Part shown: positions 14,048 through 28,923 of the stretch, in pieces | Numbering within the stretch: the stretch's first letter is position 1 | Layout of the letters: every line of letters starts with the position of its first letter | From: Candidatus Woesearchaeota archaeon | GTDB taxonomy: Archaea > Nanobdellota > Nanobdellia > Pacearchaeales > GW2011-AR1 | Assembly (NCBI GenBank): GCA_964509675.1 | Contig: CAZDXC010000001.1 | Coordinates: forward strand, 115,973 to 179,972 | Direction: 5' to 3' | Length of the DNA: 64,000 nt | The notes under the pieces: generated by a model | What the model was told of the DNA's origin: nothing | Databases searched by the model: none | What the model saw: only the letters and a program-made list of their open reading frames with translations | Translations under genes and position numbers: made by a program

Positions 14048-17000
14048 TTATTTATTCGTGTCTTCAACGATTTTTTTCTTTGCTATTTTCTTTTCTTCTT
14101 CTTTTTTTATTAATGGACCTACAACTTTAACCATCAAACCTGGAAGCCCGGTTCCAACAGGAACAGGCTGATTCAGCATTATGTTTTCTATGACACTGAC
14201 AAGTCTGTCTTTGCTTCCTTTTATTGTTGCATTGATAAATTGTTTTCCGGGAGTTTCAAATGTTGCCCTTGCCAAGATTGAAGATTTTTGTGCTATAATT
14301 CCCATTCTTGTAACTCCTTTTATTTCTCCTGTATTTGTCATGGCATCTGAAATGAGTTTTAGATGTCTCTCATTAATGTCCAATCCCTGCGTGTTTATTA
14401 CATTATAAATTTCATCCATTATTAATTGTCTTGCAACTTCTATTCCAAATGTGTCAGCAACTTCATACAAGTCATTTGAAATAACTCTGTCAGAATCAAC
14501 TTCTTTTAATTCGATTATTTTTTTCAAATTTGTTCCGAGAGTCATTATTATGTAATCTCTGTCTTTCTTAACTATAAGAATCTGCTTAATTCCCTTAATA
14601 CCAGAGATTATTGTTTTTTTTAGTTTTTCTTTAAGCTGATAAATTTCTTTAAAACTGAACTCAGAAGCGTTTAGAGTTATTGAATCTGATTTTTCCCTTG
14701 CTTTAAAGCCCAAATCATTCAGCCTCTCAACAACAGTCTTTATTGAACTGTGAGTTTGCCTTAATCCTGTTTTGTCAATTACTATTTCAATTGTCTTGTT
14801 GCTAAAATTGAGATTTATCTCAGAGGCAATTTCTCTTAATGTTACCTCTTTGATTTTCTCGGCAAAAACTTTGGCATTTTTTTCATTGTTGTATTCTTTT
14901 TTCAGGAAGATTTCCATTTTCGGAGAAGAAGGTTTTTTCCTTGCATCAAAAATTTCTATTAATCTTGGAAGTCCCATTGTAATCTGCATTTCCTGAACTC
15001 CTGCAAAATGGAATACATTCAATGCCATCTGAGTTGAAGGCTCTCCAAAAGACTGCGCTGTGACAATCCCTATCGCTTCTCCCGGATTAATTTGTTTTTT
15101 GAGATGCAGCTTTGAAACATCCATTCCATCATCCCCATATTTAAATTGTATCAGATTATTGTTGCTGTCTCTGACAGTTCCATCGTATTCTATTCTCAAA
15201 TCCTGCAAGGCATTTGCCAGTCTTCTGTACAAGTATCCTGACTTCGGCGTTCTTAATGCAGTATCCATGAGAGAATCTCTTCCTGTAATAGCTCCGAAAA
15301 AGAATTCATCTGGCCTTAATCCTTTTATAAAAGAACTTTTTATAAATCCCCTTGCAGCAGGAGTAAGGTCCCCCTGCCTGAAAAATGATAATGTTCTCCC
15401 ATTATATCCAATGTCAATTCTTTTTCCCCATAAAGCCTGTTGCCCCACACATGAAGCCATTTGAGTAATATTCAGAATATTTCCTCCTCCTCCGGATTTA
15501 ATCATGTGATTCACAGGATTTTCTTTGGGAAATTCTCTCTTGACAATTTCTCCTATCTTTGTTCTTACTTCATTCAGTGCCTGAAGTATCTTTATCTCTC
15601 TTGACTCTTCTTCTGTCTTTCCCGGAATTCTCTCAAGCTCGCCTTTATTGTAGCTTTCTATAATTTCTTCTGTTTTCTTCTCGGCTTTCTTTATTATTTC
15701 TTCTCCTGCATCAATCACGCTTTGATTCAAATCCAAATCTTCAACAGAAATTGTTATTCCCCTGTCTGACAGATATTTGACACCCAAATTAAACACTTTT
15801 CTTATTGTTTCAAATGTTTCATTTGTTCCGACTTTCTCATCAAGGACTTTTATAAATCCCCCGTCTTCGCTTCCGAATAATGTTTTGTCTATTTCTCCTT
15901 TAGTGACTTCTCCATTTCTTATGCTGACAGAATCATTAGAGAAATTTATTTTTGGAAGTATTAATGAAAACATTTCTTTTCCTGTTATGTTCTTTTTTGA
16001 TATTTCCTGATTAATGCCTGATTTGAAAAGGATTTGATTTGCATAATCATTTGAGAATTCCTCTTCTCCAAGAAGATAATTTCCTGTTATTGCGTCTCCT
16101 ATACATCCGATTAAATTTGTGTTATTCTTCGGAGAAATTAAATTTTTCTTTACATCCAAGAGAATTTTTGCTTCTGCCCTTGCTTCTTCTGTCTGCGGAG
16201 AATGTATGTTCATTTCATCCCCGTCAAAATCTGCATTATATGGAGTAACCACAGAAGGATGTAACCTGAAAGTTCTTCCTGGAAGCACCTTAACAAAATG
16301 GGCCATCAGGCTTCCTCTGTGCAAACTTGGATGCCTGTTGAATAAAACAACATCTCCGTCCTGAAGATGTCTCTCAACTTTATACCCCGAATCAAGTTCA
16401 TTGATTATTTCTTCTTTCAAGTCAGGAGTTATTTTTTTTCTCTTTCCGTCAGGTCTTATAATATAATTTGCTCCTGGATATTCTTCTCCCCTCTCAATTA
16501 ATTCTTTCAGTTTTTCAATATTCAAGTCAGTGACACTTTCTGCAACAGTAACTACCTTTGCAATTTCATAAGGAATTCCTACTTCATTGATTGATATGTA
16601 TGGGTCTGGAGAAATTACTGTTCTTCCCGAATAATTTACTCTTTTTCCAGCAAGATTTTTTCTTATTCTTCCTTCTTTTCCCTTTATTCTTTCCATAATT
16701 GTTTTTAATGGTTGTCCTGAACGGTGTCTTGCAGGAGGTATTTTTGCTACGCTATTGTCAAAAAATGTTGTGACATGAAATTGTAATAAATCCCACAAAT
16801 CTTCTATTATTACTTCAGGAGCTCCTGCATTCAGATTTTCCCAAAGTCTTTGGTTTGCTCTTATAATATCAGAAAGCTTATGAGTAAGGTCATCTTCGCT
16901 TCTCTCTCCTGATTCCAAGATAATGCTTGGTCTTACTGTTACGGGAGGGACAAGAAGCATAGTCAAAACAGCCCATTCTGGTCTGCATGTGGTTGGATTT

Positions 17001-17542
17001 ACACCAATTTTTTTCAATTCTTCGTTTGGAATATTAACGAGCATTTCTCTTATTTCAGTAGGAAAAAGTCTTGTCTTTCCAATGAAAAAACTTGTCGGCT
17101 TATCAAGTTTAATTCTTTCATGCACAGCACCACAATGCGGACATTTCTTTGAATCCTTTGCCTTTTTTGCTCTCTCGCTTGGAGTATATTTTTCCAAATC
17201 TTTGTCAGCAATCAAGAGTTTTCCACACTCTCTGCAAAAACATCTTAATGCCAGTTCAATTAAAGAGACATATTTCAAATGTATTATGGGTCTTGCCAAA
17301 TCAATGCTTCCAGGATGTCCCAAACATTCTTTCAGTCTTCCTCCGCATGTTCTGCATCTCACTCCCGGGTCTATCGCACCAAGACGTAAATCCATCAGTC
17401 CTCCGTCAACAGGATATCCATCTATATTATAAAGTTCAGGCGTGACTATCTTTGCAGCAGAGATTTTCTTGATGTCTTCTGGACTAAACAAGGCAAATCT
17501 TATTTCTTCTACTTTCTTCTTTATTGGTTTTTGTTCTATCAT
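14048..17542 (-). CDS. rpoA: DNA-directed RNA polymerase subunit A, a fused A'+A'' single ORF
   Basis: The N-terminal zinc clamp is CRTCGGRLKECLGHPG and the active site is YNADFDGDEMN. The bridge-helix region is GLRPDEFFFGAITGRDSLMDTALRTPKSGYLYRR and the A''-type trigger loop is GEAIGIVTAQSFGEPSTQMALNVFHFAG. All of these lie in one uninterrupted 1164-aa frame. Confidence 0.95.
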   Translation of the reverse strand: MIEQKPIKKKVEEIRFALFSPEDIKKISAAKIVTPELYNIDGYPVDGGLMDLRLGAIDPGVRCRTCGGRLKECLGHPGSIDLARPIIHLKYVSLIELALRCFCRECGKLLIADKDLEKYTPSERAKKAKDSKKCPHCGAVHERIKLDKPTSFFIGKTRLFPTEIREMLVNIPNEELKKIGVNPTTCRPEWAVLTMLLVPPVTVRPSIILESGERSEDDLTHKLSDIIRANQRLWENLNAGAPEVIIEDLWDLLQFHVTTFFDNSVAKIPPARHRSGQPLKTIMERIKGKEGRIRKNLAGKRVNYSGRTVISPDPYISINEVGIPYEIAKVVTVAESVTDLNIEKLKELIERGEEYPGANYIIRPDGKRKKITPDLKEEIINELDSGYKVERHLQDGDVVLFNRHPSLHRGSLMAHFVKVLPGRTFRLHPSVVTPYNADFDGDEMNIHSPQTEEARAEAKILLDVKKNLISPKNNTNLIGCIGDAITGNYLLGEEEFSNDYANQILFKSGINQEISKKNITGKEMFSLILPKINFSNDSVSIRNGEVTKGEIDKTLFGSEDGGFIKVLDEKVGTNETFETIRKVFNLGVKYLSDRGITISVEDLDLNQSVIDAGEEIIKKAEKKTEEIIESYNKGELERIPGKTEEESREIKILQALNEVRTKIGEIVKREFPKENPVNHMIKSGGGGNILNITQMASCVGQQALWGKRIDIGYNGRTLSFFRQGDLTPAARGFIKSSFIKGLRPDEFFFGAITGRDSLMDTALRTPKSGYLYRRLANALQDLRIEYDGTVRDSNNNLIQFKYGDDGMDVSKLHLKKQINPGEAIGIVTAQSFGEPSTQMALNVFHFAGVQEMQITMGLPRLIEIFDARKKPSSPKMEIFLKKEYNNEKNAKVFAEKIKEVTLREIASEINLNFSNKTIEIVIDKTGLRQTHSSIKTVVERLNDLGFKAREKSDSITLNASEFSFKEIYQLKEKLKKTIISGIKGIKQILIVKKDRDYIIMTLGTNLKKIIELKEVDSDRVISNDLYEVADTFGIEVARQLIMDEIYNVINTQGLDINERHLKLISDAMTNTGEIKGVTRMGIIAQKSSILARATFETPGKQFINATIKGSKDRLVSVIENIMLNQPVPVGTGLPGLMVKVVGPLIKKEEEKKIAKKKIVEDTNK

Positions 17543-21460: not shown

Positions 21461-21596
21461 TGGCCCCGATGGGATTTGAACCCACGACACCTGGATCTCT
21501 TTGCCTATTGTAGTTTCTTTGAGCGCCGAATCTTTCTTTTCTAAAGAAAGTTGGGCATAAAAGTCCAGTGCTCTAACCAGACTGAGCTACGGAGCC
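21461..21596 (-). tRNA. tRNA-Lys(UUU) with a 61-nt intron at the canonical 37/38 position
   Basis: The 5' exon is GGCTCCGTAGCTCAGTCTGGTTAGAGCACTGGACTTTTA and the 3' exon is ATCCAGGTGTCGTGGGTTCAAATCCCATCGGGGCCA. The acceptor has seven pairs (one G-U), the D-stem is GCTC/GAGC, the anticodon stem is CTGGA/TCCAG, and the T-arm is GTGGG-TTCAAAT-CCCAT. CCA is not encoded. Confidence 0.75.
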
Positions 21597-23220: not shown

Positions 23221-24894
23221 CTATCTTGAATTTCCGAGCATTTCATACTTTGTCTGTTTGTGCAATTCATTGTTATATTCTCTTAAATCAGTTATGTGCT
23301 TGCAGAAATTTCCTTCTGTGCAGAATCCAATATTGCATTTTGGTTCAAGAAAATATTTTATTTCAGGAACAGCACTTGCAATTAACTCTCTTTTTTTCCA
23401 TGATGCTGCATATCTTTCAGGCTCGCATGCCTTGCACAATCTAAGAGGCAATTCCAAATCAATTAAATTCACTAAATCATAAGTTTCTGATGTTCTTAGT
23501 TTTATATTCTTGGGAACAATATACAACGCATCTCTTTTCTCAAAACCTTCTTCAACAAGCCTTCCATAAAACATCAATTGTTTTGCAGTATGATATAAAT
23601 AAGGAGTTAATAGTTCTGGTTGTTTTTTTAATCTTTCATCTATTGAAATTACTTTTTCTAATTCCTGAAGAGAGCTGGCAGGAATATTTCTAAATCCCAA
23701 TGTCGGGAGGTCTAATTCCTTAACTTTTTTGTAGGCTCTGTCAACAGCAGAATAAACCGACTCTACATTTTGTCTCAATGTAGCATGTCTTTTTTGTTCG
23801 CTCCAGACTCTCCATGAAAGAGAATCAGCAATTTTTATCCTGACTGCATCATTGTATTCTCCGACAAAATCCCTCAATGAAAGCATACATTTCATTGATT
23901 CTTCTGTAAGTTTTTTTGGATTGGTTATTTTTCTTGTTTCTTCAAAATATTTTTCTAATCTATTTAATCCATTAATAAAACCATTTCCTCCGTCTTCTTT
24001 AATATCATTAACAGAAACAACCCTTGGTTCAAAAGGCATTCCTATTTTTTCTGCTATCTCCAGTGCAGAATTCTGAACAGAAGGATCTTTGAAAACAGTA
24101 TAATGAAAATAAGTATCTCTTGGAACTCTTGTCCTTTGCGAATACATTATTCCCATTCCTGCTTTTTCTGTTAAGTTTTCAAGCCTGTCTGCTAAATAAT
24201 GCAATTCTCTCGGAACAAAATTTCCGTTTGGATTTGCCTTATCTTGCTCAACTTCAAATTTTAATGTTGCTAAGGTATCAAGAGGCATGACAATAAACAA
24301 GTCTGCAGGATTATTGTAAGGAATTACTTTGTTGAATGTCTCAACTCCTGCAAGTTTCCCGAATTTTTCCTTGAAATCTTTTGCAGCATTAAAAACATCC
24401 CTTGAAATTTTTAAATATTCATTCAATAAATCCTCTCTTTTAAACAAGACTTTTGGAACAACAATTTCCTCTGTTGTTGTTTCTCTTCTTCTTGAACTCG
24501 TTGCCAAACTTCTTGAAACAACAAATCCTGTCAACCCAGAATCAATCATTTTTGTTCCATTAAGCCCTAAAACAATTCCGGCCAGGCCTCCGAGCGAATG
24601 TCCTCTTCCTATTCCTGTTGCTGTTTTTTTGAAAATTGTTTTCTTTAGCCCATGTTCATTTTCTATATCTTGTAAAATATCATTTTCCAGAGTGTTGAAA
24701 TTCATTCCTCCTGAAACCAAGGACTGCGCATAAGAAACTAATTCATCTCCTCCAAGGAAATCACGATTGAAAACCTGATAAAAATATTCTTTAAGTTCAG
24801 GATTTTTTATGCTGACTTTGGGATATACTCCAAGAACATTTGTCTTTAAATCTTCATCAGTAAGAAATCTCTTTCCTCTATATTCCCCTGTCAT
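23221..24894 (-). CDS. hypothetical protein with a C-terminal Cys cluster, adjacent to the RNR operon
   Basis: A 557-aa ORF with a Gly-rich segment (TGIGRGHSLGGLAGIVLG). Its C-terminus reads CKACEPERY...PKCNIGFCTEGNFCKH. Confidence 0.5.
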   Translation of the reverse strand: MTGEYRGKRFLTDEDLKTNVLGVYPKVSIKNPELKEYFYQVFNRDFLGGDELVSYAQSLVSGGMNFNTLENDILQDIENEHGLKKTIFKKTATGIGRGHSLGGLAGIVLGLNGTKMIDSGLTGFVVSRSLATSSRRRETTTEEIVVPKVLFKREDLLNEYLKISRDVFNAAKDFKEKFGKLAGVETFNKVIPYNNPADLFIVMPLDTLATLKFEVEQDKANPNGNFVPRELHYLADRLENLTEKAGMGIMYSQRTRVPRDTYFHYTVFKDPSVQNSALEIAEKIGMPFEPRVVSVNDIKEDGGNGFINGLNRLEKYFEETRKITNPKKLTEESMKCMLSLRDFVGEYNDAVRIKIADSLSWRVWSEQKRHATLRQNVESVYSAVDRAYKKVKELDLPTLGFRNIPASSLQELEKVISIDERLKKQPELLTPYLYHTAKQLMFYGRLVEEGFEKRDALYIVPKNIKLRTSETYDLVNLIDLELPLRLCKACEPERYAASWKKRELIASAVPEIKYFLEPKCNIGFCTEGNFCKHITDLREYNNELHKQTKYEMLGNSR

Positions 24895-27789: not shown

Positions 27790-28227
27790 TTACAATCCCT
27801 TCATCTCTCGTTTAAAATCATCTATGTCCTGAAATTCCCTATATACAGATGCAAATCTTATATACGCGACATTGTCAATTTTTTTTATTTTTTTCATGAC
27901 TAATTCCCCAATCTCAGAACTTTTAATTTCCTTTTTTCCCTTTCTTCTTATCTGTTCTTCTATTTCATTTATCATTTTGTCTATTTTTTCTTTTGCGACA
28001 GGGCGTTTTTCAAATGCCCTGTAAATTCCTGCTTCGAGTTTTTCCTTGCTGAACTTTTCTCTCCTGTTATCTTTTTTTATTACATATATGTCTTCCACAG
28101 AAGCTTTTTCATATGTGGTAAATCTCTTTTTGCATTTCAGACACTCTCTTCTCCTTCTTATCCCTTCAGGAGACTCTCTTTTGTCTGTTACTCTTGATTC
28201 TTTGTGTAAGCAATATGGACAATCCAT
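27790..28227 (-). CDS. nrdR: NrdR transcriptional repressor
   Basis: An N-terminal Zn ribbon (MDCPYCLHKESRVTDKRES...RRRECLKCKKRFTTYE) is followed by an ATP-cone, and the gene abuts nrdJ. Confidence 0.85.
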   Translation of the reverse strand: MDCPYCLHKESRVTDKRESPEGIRRRRECLKCKKRFTTYEKASVEDIYVIKKDNRREKFSKEKLEAGIYRAFEKRPVAKEKIDKMINEIEEQIRRKGKKEIKSSEIGELVMKKIKKIDNVAYIRFASVYREFQDIDDFKREMKGL

Positions 28228-28257
28228 TTTTATTTAATCTTTTTAACAAATAATAGG

Positions 28258-28304
28258 ATACAATATATTGTATATCAAATAACCTTTATTGCTACCTATT
28301 GTAT
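28258..28304. promoter_or_regulatory. NrdR-box operator: a perfect 16-bp palindrome ATACAATATATTGTAT plus a degenerate second box 31 bp downstream
   Basis: The first box (28258-28273) matches the NrdR-box consensus acaCaATATATtGtgt. The second box (28289-28304) has its TATTGTAT half exactly one 31-bp spacing away. Both lie 30-80 bp upstream of the nrdR start. Confidence 0.55.
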
Positions 28305-28410
28305 AAGCAAGAAAATAATGAAAGAAGAACTATTTAAACATTTATTTTCACTTGGATAGAGCAACATGAATATACGAATACAGAAATGTGCAGAAATATA
28401 CAAGAAAAAA

Positions 28411-28923
28411 TCAGAAATAATCAATCCATGTATTGCTTTCATCCAATTCTCTACCATGGTGTCTTATCACGTCAAAGAAATTTCTTCCATCCTTAAGCCA
28501 TTCGTATATTTTAACATCACCTGAATTTTTCGGAAGTTGTAAAATTTCTTGTTTTAGGATCCATAAAGGTTTTTCTCTTTCATCTCCTTTACTTATTAGT
28601 TTACCGCTATATTGTTTGGCAGCAAATATGTAGACTAAATAATCAGGAGCATTCTGCCAATTATTAAAAATTCTTCCTTCATTATCAAATAGAATAATAC
28701 CTCTAAATTGTATAGGATTAATTAAAGTTAAACCAGTCTCTTGAGTAGTTTCTCTTATTGCTGCCTCTAATCTACCTTGTAAGTTTGTTCCTTTTTCATT
28801 TTTTTCTAATTTCCCTCCTGGCAAGGTATAAAAGTTTGAGTTGGGGTCACCTTTCTTTTTAGATTTCTTTACCATCAAAACATGGTCTTTTACACATAAA
28901 TAAGATAGAACACCATACATCAT
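28411..28923 (-). CDS. NUDIX hydrolase
   Basis: Nudix box GGKLEKNEKGTNLQGRLEAAIRETTQETGL (Gx5Ex7REUxEExGU). Confidence 0.8.
   Translation of the reverse strand: MMYGVLSYLCVKDHVLMVKKSKKKGDPNSNFYTLPGGKLEKNEKGTNLQGRLEAAIRETTQETGLTLINPIQFRGIILFDNEGRIFNNWQNAPDYLVYIFAAKQYSGKLISKGDEREKPLWILKQEILQLPKNSGDVKIYEWLKDGRNFFDVIRHHGRELDESNTWIDYF

Follow-up and report, generated by a model that had tools for sequence, protein, structure and literature searches.

NrdR, a repressor composed of a Zn ribbon and an ATP-cone, has been studied only in bacteria, where it is discussed as an antibacterial target. Here we analyze an nrdR gene, the gene nrdJ for a class II ribonucleotide reductase (RNR) that follows it, and the operator upstream of both, in a 64-kb window (33% GC) of contig CAZDXC010000001.1 from a DPANN archaeon, the window being the whole stretch of DNA that was analyzed. 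The locus is a real, well-conserved NrdR regulon and largely an ordinary member of a known regulatory system; what it appears to add, judging from the comparison of its relatives, is an archaeal promoter geometry and the swapping of RNRs behind a constant regulator. A 2026 paper (PMC13584703) reports NrdR from 22% of archaeal genomes, against 77% of bacterial ones, and the copy in the window belongs to a large, exclusively archaeal clade, so that the initial annotation went too far in calling the regulator overwhelmingly bacterial. According to a 2014 review, archaea lack the NrdR box (PMC4009431), a 2025 preprint describes NrdR as being without archaeal orthologues, and the large surveys of NrdR boxes cover bacterial genomes only. 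In the open-access literature we found no paper on NrdR with DPANN or Nanoarchaeota, nor on NrdR at archaeal promoters.

Among the described systems, the nrdRJ operon of Streptomyces coelicolor (PDB 7p37/7p3f/7p3q; PMC9110341) shares with the window the order nrdR–nrdJ, with a class II nrdJ of comparable length that also belongs to NF005122, two 16-bp boxes with a 15-bp linker ahead of nrdR, which implies autoregulation, and conserved Zn-ribbon DNA-contact and ATP-cone residues. The two promoters differ, however: the S. coelicolor boxes lie over the −35/−10 elements of a sigma factor, whereas those of the window lie past the predicted start of a promoter with a TATA box, presumably used by TBP, TFB and a Pol II-like polymerase. 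The window NrdR is also shorter (145 aa without a C-terminal tail, against 195 aa), and in phmmer it scores 107 bits with the S. coelicolor protein versus 145 bits with that of Escherichia coli. The E. coli system (NrdR structures PDB 9fvr, 9fzf, 9gex and 9fxk) has the same two-domain architecture, box consensus and spacing of 15–16 bp (PMC13584703, PMC12176259), but E. coli nrdR stands apart from the RNR genes and controls three RNR operons, whereas the window holds a single visible box pair, directly upstream of nrdR. Our criteria for NrdR boxes come from a 2026 mutational study (PMC13584703), in which positions C4, A6, A8, T9, T11 and G13 are highly conserved, the linker usually measures 15–16 bp, and the middle positions of the box tolerate change.

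The haloarchaeal nrdR-nrdAB operons, for which Lundin et al. (2010, PMC3019208) described a transfer from bacteria, resemble the window in their archaeal host and in that nrdR opens the RNR operon. The example that we analyzed, on plasmid pHBOR02 of Halogeometricum borinquense (NC_014731.1; positions 2385–2470 of our locus L084), likewise has two boxes past a TATA-like element: TTTATCA is followed after 12 nt by ACACGATATATTGCGG and, after a further 14 nt, by CCACAACATGTGGAAT. Both of these nrdR-nrdA boxes match 6 of the 6 key positions, with a 14-bp linker, so that NrdR boxes are found in another archaeal lineage unrelated to that of the window, which contradicts the 2014 review. Unlike the window, the haloarchaeal operons encode a class I RNR and a NrdR of a separate lineage, 41–44% identical to the window protein; they are reported to be recent bacterial transfers, often on plasmids (PMC3019208), and their TATA-to-box gap is 12 nt, versus about 26 nt in the window. 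The locus with its approximately 80 relatives provides a clean and strongly conserved test case for the action of a Zn-ribbon/ATP-cone repressor on an archaeal polymerase of eukaryote-like type, with a fixed distance from TATA box to operator, a single target operon and small genomes.

nrdR and nrdJ encode a genuine NrdR and a class II RNR

The annotation of nrdR and nrdJ is sound. NrdR scores 188.1 bits against the NCBIfam equivalog TIGR00244 (cutoff 124.65), with residues 1–144 falling on positions 1–146 of the 147 in the profile, and it matches the Pfam families Zn_ribbon_NrdR (PF22811, 60.4 bits) and ATP-cone (PF03477, 82.9 bits), both above their cutoffs. Its Zn ribbon contains two CxxC motifs, C3-x2-C6 and C29-x2-C32, and E. 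coli NrdR (PDB 9fvr) is 49% identical over the full length (E=2.4e-41). In the structure of S. coelicolor NrdR on DNA, R12, R26–R29 (the RRRR motif) and R37 contact the backbone while D15 and R17 read bases (PMC9110341); by alignment, the counterparts of all these residues are present in the window protein, as R12, D15, R17, R24–R27 and R35. The inner and outer nucleotide sites of the S. coelicolor protein are formed by V48, K50, R51, E56, F58, K62, K69, Q72, F124, V127 and Y128. At the corresponding positions the window protein has identical residues in V49, K51, E57, F59, K63, F125, V128 and Y129 and conservative replacements in K52, R70 and E73, E. coli likewise having the R70 and E73 residues there. 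With its known DNA-contact and nucleotide-binding residues kept or conservatively replaced, the gene is the genuine NrdR, with Zn ribbon and ATP-cone, that it had been taken for.

NrdJ is recognized by NF005122 (1124.1 bits, cutoff 859) and by TIGR02504 (539 bits, cutoff 399.95), and has the Pfam domains Ribonuc_red_2_N (PF08471), barrel (PF02867) and TSCPD; a Pfam search found no ATP-cone (PF03477) in it. The ATG of nrdJ directly abuts the stop codon of nrdR, and the absence of any gap bears out the initial view that the two genes are co-operonic. A large RNR gene also lies 3′ of nrdR in nearly every relative that has room for one. At the 3′ end of nrdR (27810–27817, minus strand) there is a weak TATA-like sequence, TTTTAAAC, whose first base stands 28 nt before the nrdJ ATG. 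This is the typical distance of a leaderless promoter in the window. The element overlaps the codons of a conserved DDFKR motif, so that the match may be coincidental.

Two NrdR boxes precede nrdR in the window and in its relatives

Upstream of nrdR lie two NrdR boxes (Table 1), which together match 11 of the 12 key positions. The palindrome that had first drawn attention to the locus, ATACAATATATTGTAT, occurs as an exact copy only once in the 64 kb and does match the NrdR box as claimed. The second box had been described as degenerate and as lying 31 bp away, the canonical two-box spacing. The spacing stands, with a 15-bp linker and with the nonamer TATTGTATA repeated at exactly 31 bp distance (28297–28305), but "degenerate" overstates the matter, the distal box retaining C4, A6, A8, T11 and G13 and having a G at position 9.

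Table 1. Features of the nrdR-nrdJ region and its flanks, in window coordinates
Feature	Position	Strand	Remarks
nrdJ, class II (B12-dependent) ribonucleotide reductase, 943 aa	24958..27789	−	NF005122, Pfam domains
nrdR, 145 aa, Zn ribbon (C3, C6, C29, C32) and ATP-cone	27790..28227	−	TIGR00244, PF22811, PF03477
nrdR ATG	28227	−	predicted +83 (82-nt leader)
Rest of predicted 82-nt 5′ leader	28228..28257	−	length not conserved in relatives
Proximal NrdR box, perfect 16-bp palindrome ATACAATATATTGTAT	28258..28273	−	6/6 key positions; predicted +37..+52
Linker between boxes, 15 bp, non-conserved sequence	28274..28288	−	15–16 bp rule (PMC13584703)
Distal NrdR box ATACAATAGGTAGCAA (gene orientation 28304..28289)	28289..28304	−	5/6 key positions; predicted +6..+21
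Predicted transcription start, ~28309	28306..28311	−	inferred from leaderless TATA-to-ATG distance
Archaeal TATA box TTTAAATA, predicted nrdR-nrdJ promoter	28331..28338	−	conserved in relatives
Purine/A-rich stretch AAATAAATG, candidate BRE-like element (BRE, TFB recognition element)	28339..28347	−	inferred; directly upstream of TATA box
557-aa protein gene directly downstream of nrdJ	23221–24894	−	own TATA-like TTTATAAA at −29
NUDIX gene	28411–28923	−	upstream of nrdR, same strand; end 72 nt before nrdR TATA box

Taken alone, the palindrome is not significantly enriched in the window (3 matches with up to three mismatches versus 0.84 expected; a count of at least 3 turned up in 6 of 100 shuffles), nor does a loose 14-mer consensus tell anything in DNA this rich in AT (47 matches versus 34 expected). 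We therefore turned to a weight matrix that covers both boxes, built from 69 other loci without the window. With this matrix the pair in the window scores 41.2 bits (17.8 bits for the same site on the opposite strand), no other site of 12 bits or more occurs on either strand of the 64 kb, and in 20 shuffled windows no site came up to 8 bits.

To compare relatives, we scanned one genome per GTDB species, which gave 401 related loci of about 8 kb, and used the best 80 of the 401 (562,569 bp in total, both strands scanned). A pair was counted when it scored at least 15 bits, on the gene strand, at most 400 nt upstream of nrdR. The results show a box pair upstream of nrdR in 77 of the 80 loci; of the three others, one is a truncated contig and two have a more divergent distal box. 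The initial annotation had suggested a scan for further NrdR boxes, but only one pair is present in the 64-kb window and none was found elsewhere in the DNA of the relatives. Of the 77 linkers, 36 measure 15 bp and 41 measure 16 bp. The proximal box has the consensus ATACAAyATATTGTAT, with A3/T14, C4/G13 and A6/T11 invariant in 77/77; the distal box has ATACAAynnrTAGTAA, with C4 in all 77, T11 and G13 each conserved in 74 of the 77, and a variable center. Judged by the aligned loci, the positions conserved in the relatives are those that are important for bacterial NrdR boxes (PMC13584703).

The low GC content of the window, and near-matches to the palindrome that alone are not significantly enriched, might suggest a chance AT-rich palindrome beside a relic nrdR. 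The score of the pair, its presence in 77 of 80 species with none elsewhere in 562 kb, and shuffled windows that did not come up to 8 bits refute this reading, as does a NrdR that is strongly conserved (72–89% identity across species); we give chance a vanishingly small probability. By its score and conservation, the two-box pair is a real operator.

Some loci deserve separate mention. In L082 (positions 2285–2345 of a metagenome contig, NrdR 58% identical), TTTAAATA stands only 4 nt before the first box, ACACAACATCTTGTGT, which is followed after 15 nt by ACACAACCTATTGAGG, a TATA-to-operator geometry that differs from that of the DPANN clade. Two short contigs binned with bacteria, L050 (MFUP01000011.1, Nomurabacteria bin, 5.3 kb) and L056 (DATJPO010000022.1, Omnitrophota bin, 6.3 kb), carry a DPANN-type nrdR, 74–77% identical, and the same promoter of TTTAAATA plus two boxes, and are probably mis-binned archaeal contigs.

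The operator lies at a fixed distance from an archaeal TATA box

Of 76 loci, 72 have a perfect TTTAAATA that begins 31–36 nt ahead of the distal box, most often 33 or 34 nt; in the relatives the box pair begins 24–28 nt past this TATA box. Across the 76 aligned loci, A is enriched (~80%) at two positions 3–4 nt ahead of the octamer. An archaeal promoter would be expected to have a TTTAWATA-type octamer, centered some 26 nt ahead of the start, behind a purine-rich BRE. TATA-like octamers (TTTAAATA, TTTATATA, TTTATAAA and similar) also precede at least 15 other genes of the window, their first base 24–35 nt before the ATG and most commonly 29 nt before it (among these genes are those at 390, 22163, 23221, 36397, 39592, 46565 and 53206). 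Leaderless mRNAs thus appear to be the norm in this genome, with the TATA box centered approximately 26 nt before the start. At nrdR the distance from the TATA box (28338..28331) to the ATG is 111 nt; given the 29-nt distance at leaderless genes, we therefore predict that nrdR transcription starts near 28309, about 22 nt past the TATA box, which would make the 82-nt leader of nrdR an exception in a largely leaderless genome.

If transcription starts there, both boxes would be transcribed, and a perfect 16-nt palindrome can fold, which raises the possibility that the palindrome is an RNA hairpin in the 5′ leader that acts on stability or translation rather than a protein operator. The predicted fold of the leader (−9.5 kcal/mol) is no more stable than that of shuffled sequences, 102 of 200 of which fold equally well or better (z = 0.0). 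Nor do the boxes vary as paired RNA would: positions 7 and 10 of the proximal box change in a non-compensatory way (C-A in 20 loci, C-C in 8, T-C in 6) while paired positions are invariant, and the distal box is not self-complementary, its pair 1–16 being Watson-Crick in 1 of 77 loci and its pair 5–12 in 11 of 77. The conserved bases are, moreover, exactly those of bacterial NrdR boxes. Since the leader also lacks covariation, and the window has no Rfam family other than tRNAs, we reject a hairpin or riboswitch in the window leader as most improbable; a protein operator is the better reading.

In some relatives (L005, L010, L025, L039, L055, L080, L062 and L011), an extra 45–130 nt lies between the proximal box and the nrdR ATG, with a recurring hairpin-like GGACACC...GGTTTCC followed by CTTCCCTTTAAG and often by GGGTCAYGCCTGATAA; this segment is absent from the window. 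Variants of the hairpin appear compensatory (GGAAACC/GGTTTCC, GAACC/GGTTC), and the segment has no match in Rfam. Candidates for its nature are a structured small RNA, a mobile element that inserted there, and an additional regulatory element.

NrdR is likely to repress its own operon at the start site

Based on these observations and by analogy with the bacterial systems, we consider it likely that nrdR and nrdJ of this DPANN archaeon form an autoregulated operon, in which NrdR acts at an operator in the start-site region. In this model, transcription would start at about 28309, and the DNA of the leader would hold the NrdR boxes at approximately +6..+21 and +37..+52. When loaded with ATP, NrdR would form oligomers unable to bind DNA, as its S. 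coelicolor and E. coli counterparts do (PMC9110341), and rising dATP would displace ATP from the outer site of the ATP-cone. The tetramer loaded with dATP and ATP would then bind both boxes via its Zn ribbons and kink the DNA, the TATA box remaining accessible, and would block either the archaeal RNA polymerase from joining TBP/TFB or promoter clearance, so that expression of nrdR and of the RNR would fall. Because nrdR itself heads the operon, the repressor would control its own expression, as in the nrdRJ operon of S. coelicolor. Such a mode of action has precedents in the archaeal repressors MDR1, LrpA and Phr, which bind at or just after the start and block recruitment of the polymerase, not binding of TBP/TFB. 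Like the boxes of the window, their operators lie past the TATA box and overlap the initiation region, but these proteins belong to unrelated metal-dependent or helix-turn-helix families, whereas NrdR, built from a Zn ribbon and an ATP-cone, is a sensor of ATP and dATP that requires a pair of boxes spaced by roughly three helical turns. Since NrdJ lacks an ATP-cone, NrdR would be the sole ATP-cone-based sensor of dATP and ATP acting on this RNR and, if the wider reading given below holds, on other RNRs without an ATP-cone.

Given that the boxes lie downstream of the predicted start, NrdR might instead bind them and act otherwise, either as a roadblock to elongation in the leader or by interfering with a secondary promoter near the ATG. 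A weak TATA-like TATTATTT indeed stands at −28..−21, at leaderless distance from the nrdR ATG, and the proximal box would lie over the BRE position of such a promoter. However, in the relatives whose boxes are correctly paired, 0 to approximately 130 nt separate the proximal box from the ATG, so that a conserved promoter in that segment is unlikely, whereas the spacing between the upstream TATA box and the boxes is constant in 72 of 76 loci. At +6, the distal box would also fall in the region covered by an initiating archaeal RNA polymerase. We thus regard action through a roadblock or a secondary promoter as unlikely, and favor repression at initiation.

Several points weigh against repression at initiation as set out here. 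The placement of the boxes at +6..+52 depends on the distance from TATA box to start at nrdR being equal to that from TATA box to ATG at leaderless genes. More generally, the gene identities, the operator, its conservation and the fixed TATA spacing are demonstrated, whereas the position of the start, nucleotide-dependent binding and repression are deduced. The leader of the window is without a clear Shine-Dalgarno sequence, and an SD-like 4-mer is found in 15 of 79 relatives versus 6 in a control window. The G in place of T at position 9 of the distal box would fail the strict regular expression of the bacterial survey (PMC13584703). Finally, the element TTTTAAAC, if active, could let nrdJ be transcribed partly independently of NrdR.

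RNR classes differ behind nrdR and appear to have been exchanged

We then typed the first large open reading frame (ORF) downstream of nrdR in 74 sequences, from the window and 73 related loci; two of the 74 assignments are without similarity to any exemplar. The NrdJ type of the window is found in 10 of the 74 (window included), other class II-like RNRs falling into four groups in 46, and the class III enzyme NrdD in 18, often followed by an activase gene. These types are interleaved on a neighbor-joining tree of 230 NrdR sequences, comprising the window, 76 related loci, representatives at 50% identity and E. coli NrdR. Among the close relatives, L001 (NrdR 88% identical) has the NrdJ type of the window, L002, L004 and L085 (84–92%) have nrdDG, and L003 has another type. 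The RNR class varies even among close relatives, which contradicts a recent joint acquisition of nrdR and this nrdJ.

The comparison points to nrdR and its operator as the stable part of the locus, behind which the RNR appears to have been replaced repeatedly, in agreement with the known mobility of RNR genes (PMC3019208). On balance, and with limited confidence, we favor the wider reading that the series of TATA box, two NrdR boxes and nrdR is a stable regulatory dock across DPANN, behind which RNR classes are exchanged, a bacterial-type repressor that senses ATP and dATP having been wired into the basal transcription machinery of archaea through an operator at the start site. If true, this reading would correct the statement of the 2014 review on the absence of NrdR boxes in archaea (PMC4009431). 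Class swaps behind an unchanged regulator also bear on how essential, often-transferred enzymes keep their regulation.

In L085, which retains the TATA-operator layout and a very similar sequence, nrdDG is followed by genes for a dCMP deaminase, DHFR and ThyA. The RNRs of several relatives are 1000–1100 aa long, and that of L067 has a LAGLIDADG domain, which suggests an intein.

The nrdR gene belongs to an archaeal clade

The host is a DPANN archaeon (Pacearchaeota/Woesearchaeota, GTDB Nanoarchaeota), in line with the archaeal assignment made at the outset. Genes for Rpb2- and Rpb1-type subunits of RNA polymerase, for ribosomal protein S7 and for aEF-2 and aEF-1alpha are arranged as is usual in archaea, and the window also encodes an intron-containing tRNA. 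Rfam places this tRNA over 136 nt (21461–21596, minus strand), with an insertion of about 65 nt that we read as the intron; ARAGORN does not report it. RNA polymerase subunit A is encoded by a single ORF of 1164 aa (14048–17542, minus strand) with Rpb1 domains 1–5; archaea usually split this subunit into A′ and A″ genes.

In a search of 5.8 billion proteins, the best 120 homologs of NrdR are 79–100% identical to it, and the 10 that are named are all from Pacearchaeota, Nanoarchaeota or "uncultured archaeon." In the best 80 GTDB species loci, 78 of which are labelled archaeal (as Pacearchaeota, Woesearchaeota, Nanoarchaeota, Nanoarchaeia, Iainarchaeum or archaeon), NrdR is 72–89% identical, whereas outside the DPANN clade identity is at most 59%. 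Copies labelled Firmicutes or Gammaproteobacteria reach 48–51% and haloarchaeal copies 41–44%; haloarchaeal NrdR being less similar than bacterial NrdR, the archaeal NrdRs are therefore not one lineage. The nearest 10 representative clusters include two named ones, one Nanoarchaeota and one Chloroflexota, and one NrdR representative is bacterial by its gene context. A phylogeny had been proposed for deciding between bacterial ancestry and nesting within archaea. In the neighbor-joining tree the DPANN NrdR clade is monophyletic, but the midpoint root adjoins the clade, so that the tree gives no source. An ancient bacterial origin of the DPANN NrdR is plausible, given that the Firmicutes and Gammaproteobacteria copies are closer to it than the haloarchaeal ones.

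The initial annotation had gone further and proposed that the regulon was acquired by horizontal transfer along with the RNR. In favor of a recent acquisition of an nrdR-box-nrdJ unit from a bacterium, one can cite the higher frequency of NrdR in bacteria (PMC13584703), the occurrence of nrdRJ operons in Streptomyces and the frequent transfer of RNR genes (PMC3019208), as well as the greater closeness of bacterial than of haloarchaeal NrdRs to the window copy. The GC comparison suggested along with that proposal shows nothing unusual, however: GC is 0.34–0.35 over the RNR genes, within the range of approximately 0.26–0.37 across the window. Such a transfer is likewise contradicted by the large clade, with 78 of the 80 nearest species and all named protein matches archaeal, by the drop in identity outside it, by the clade-wide archaeal TATA box ahead of the operator, and by an RNR partner that differs among the closest NrdR relatives while nrdR, operator and TATA box recur in 77 of 80 loci. 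A recent joint transfer of nrdR and nrdJ is thus very unlikely.

Genes flanking the operon

The NUDIX hydrolase gene, which had been placed downstream of nrdR and tentatively assigned to the same deoxynucleoside triphosphate (dNTP)-homeostasis module, lies in fact upstream in the direction of transcription. We reject it as a part of the module: the predicted promoter of nrdR lies between the two genes, and a search of the 80 related loci for a NUDIX homolog came up empty, down to a threshold as loose as E≤0.01. The usual upstream neighbor in the relatives is a PP-loop gene, which in the window lies beyond the NUDIX gene.

On the other side, the 557-aa protein encoded directly downstream of nrdJ has no NCBIfam match and no match to a PDB sequence. 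It scores 20.5 bits with Thy1 (ThyX), below the cutoff of 24.8 and over its C-terminal part only, and may be a divergent thymidylate-synthase-like enzyme tied to dNTP metabolism. The same gene is also found 3′ of nrdJ in L001 (73% identity), L006 and L019.

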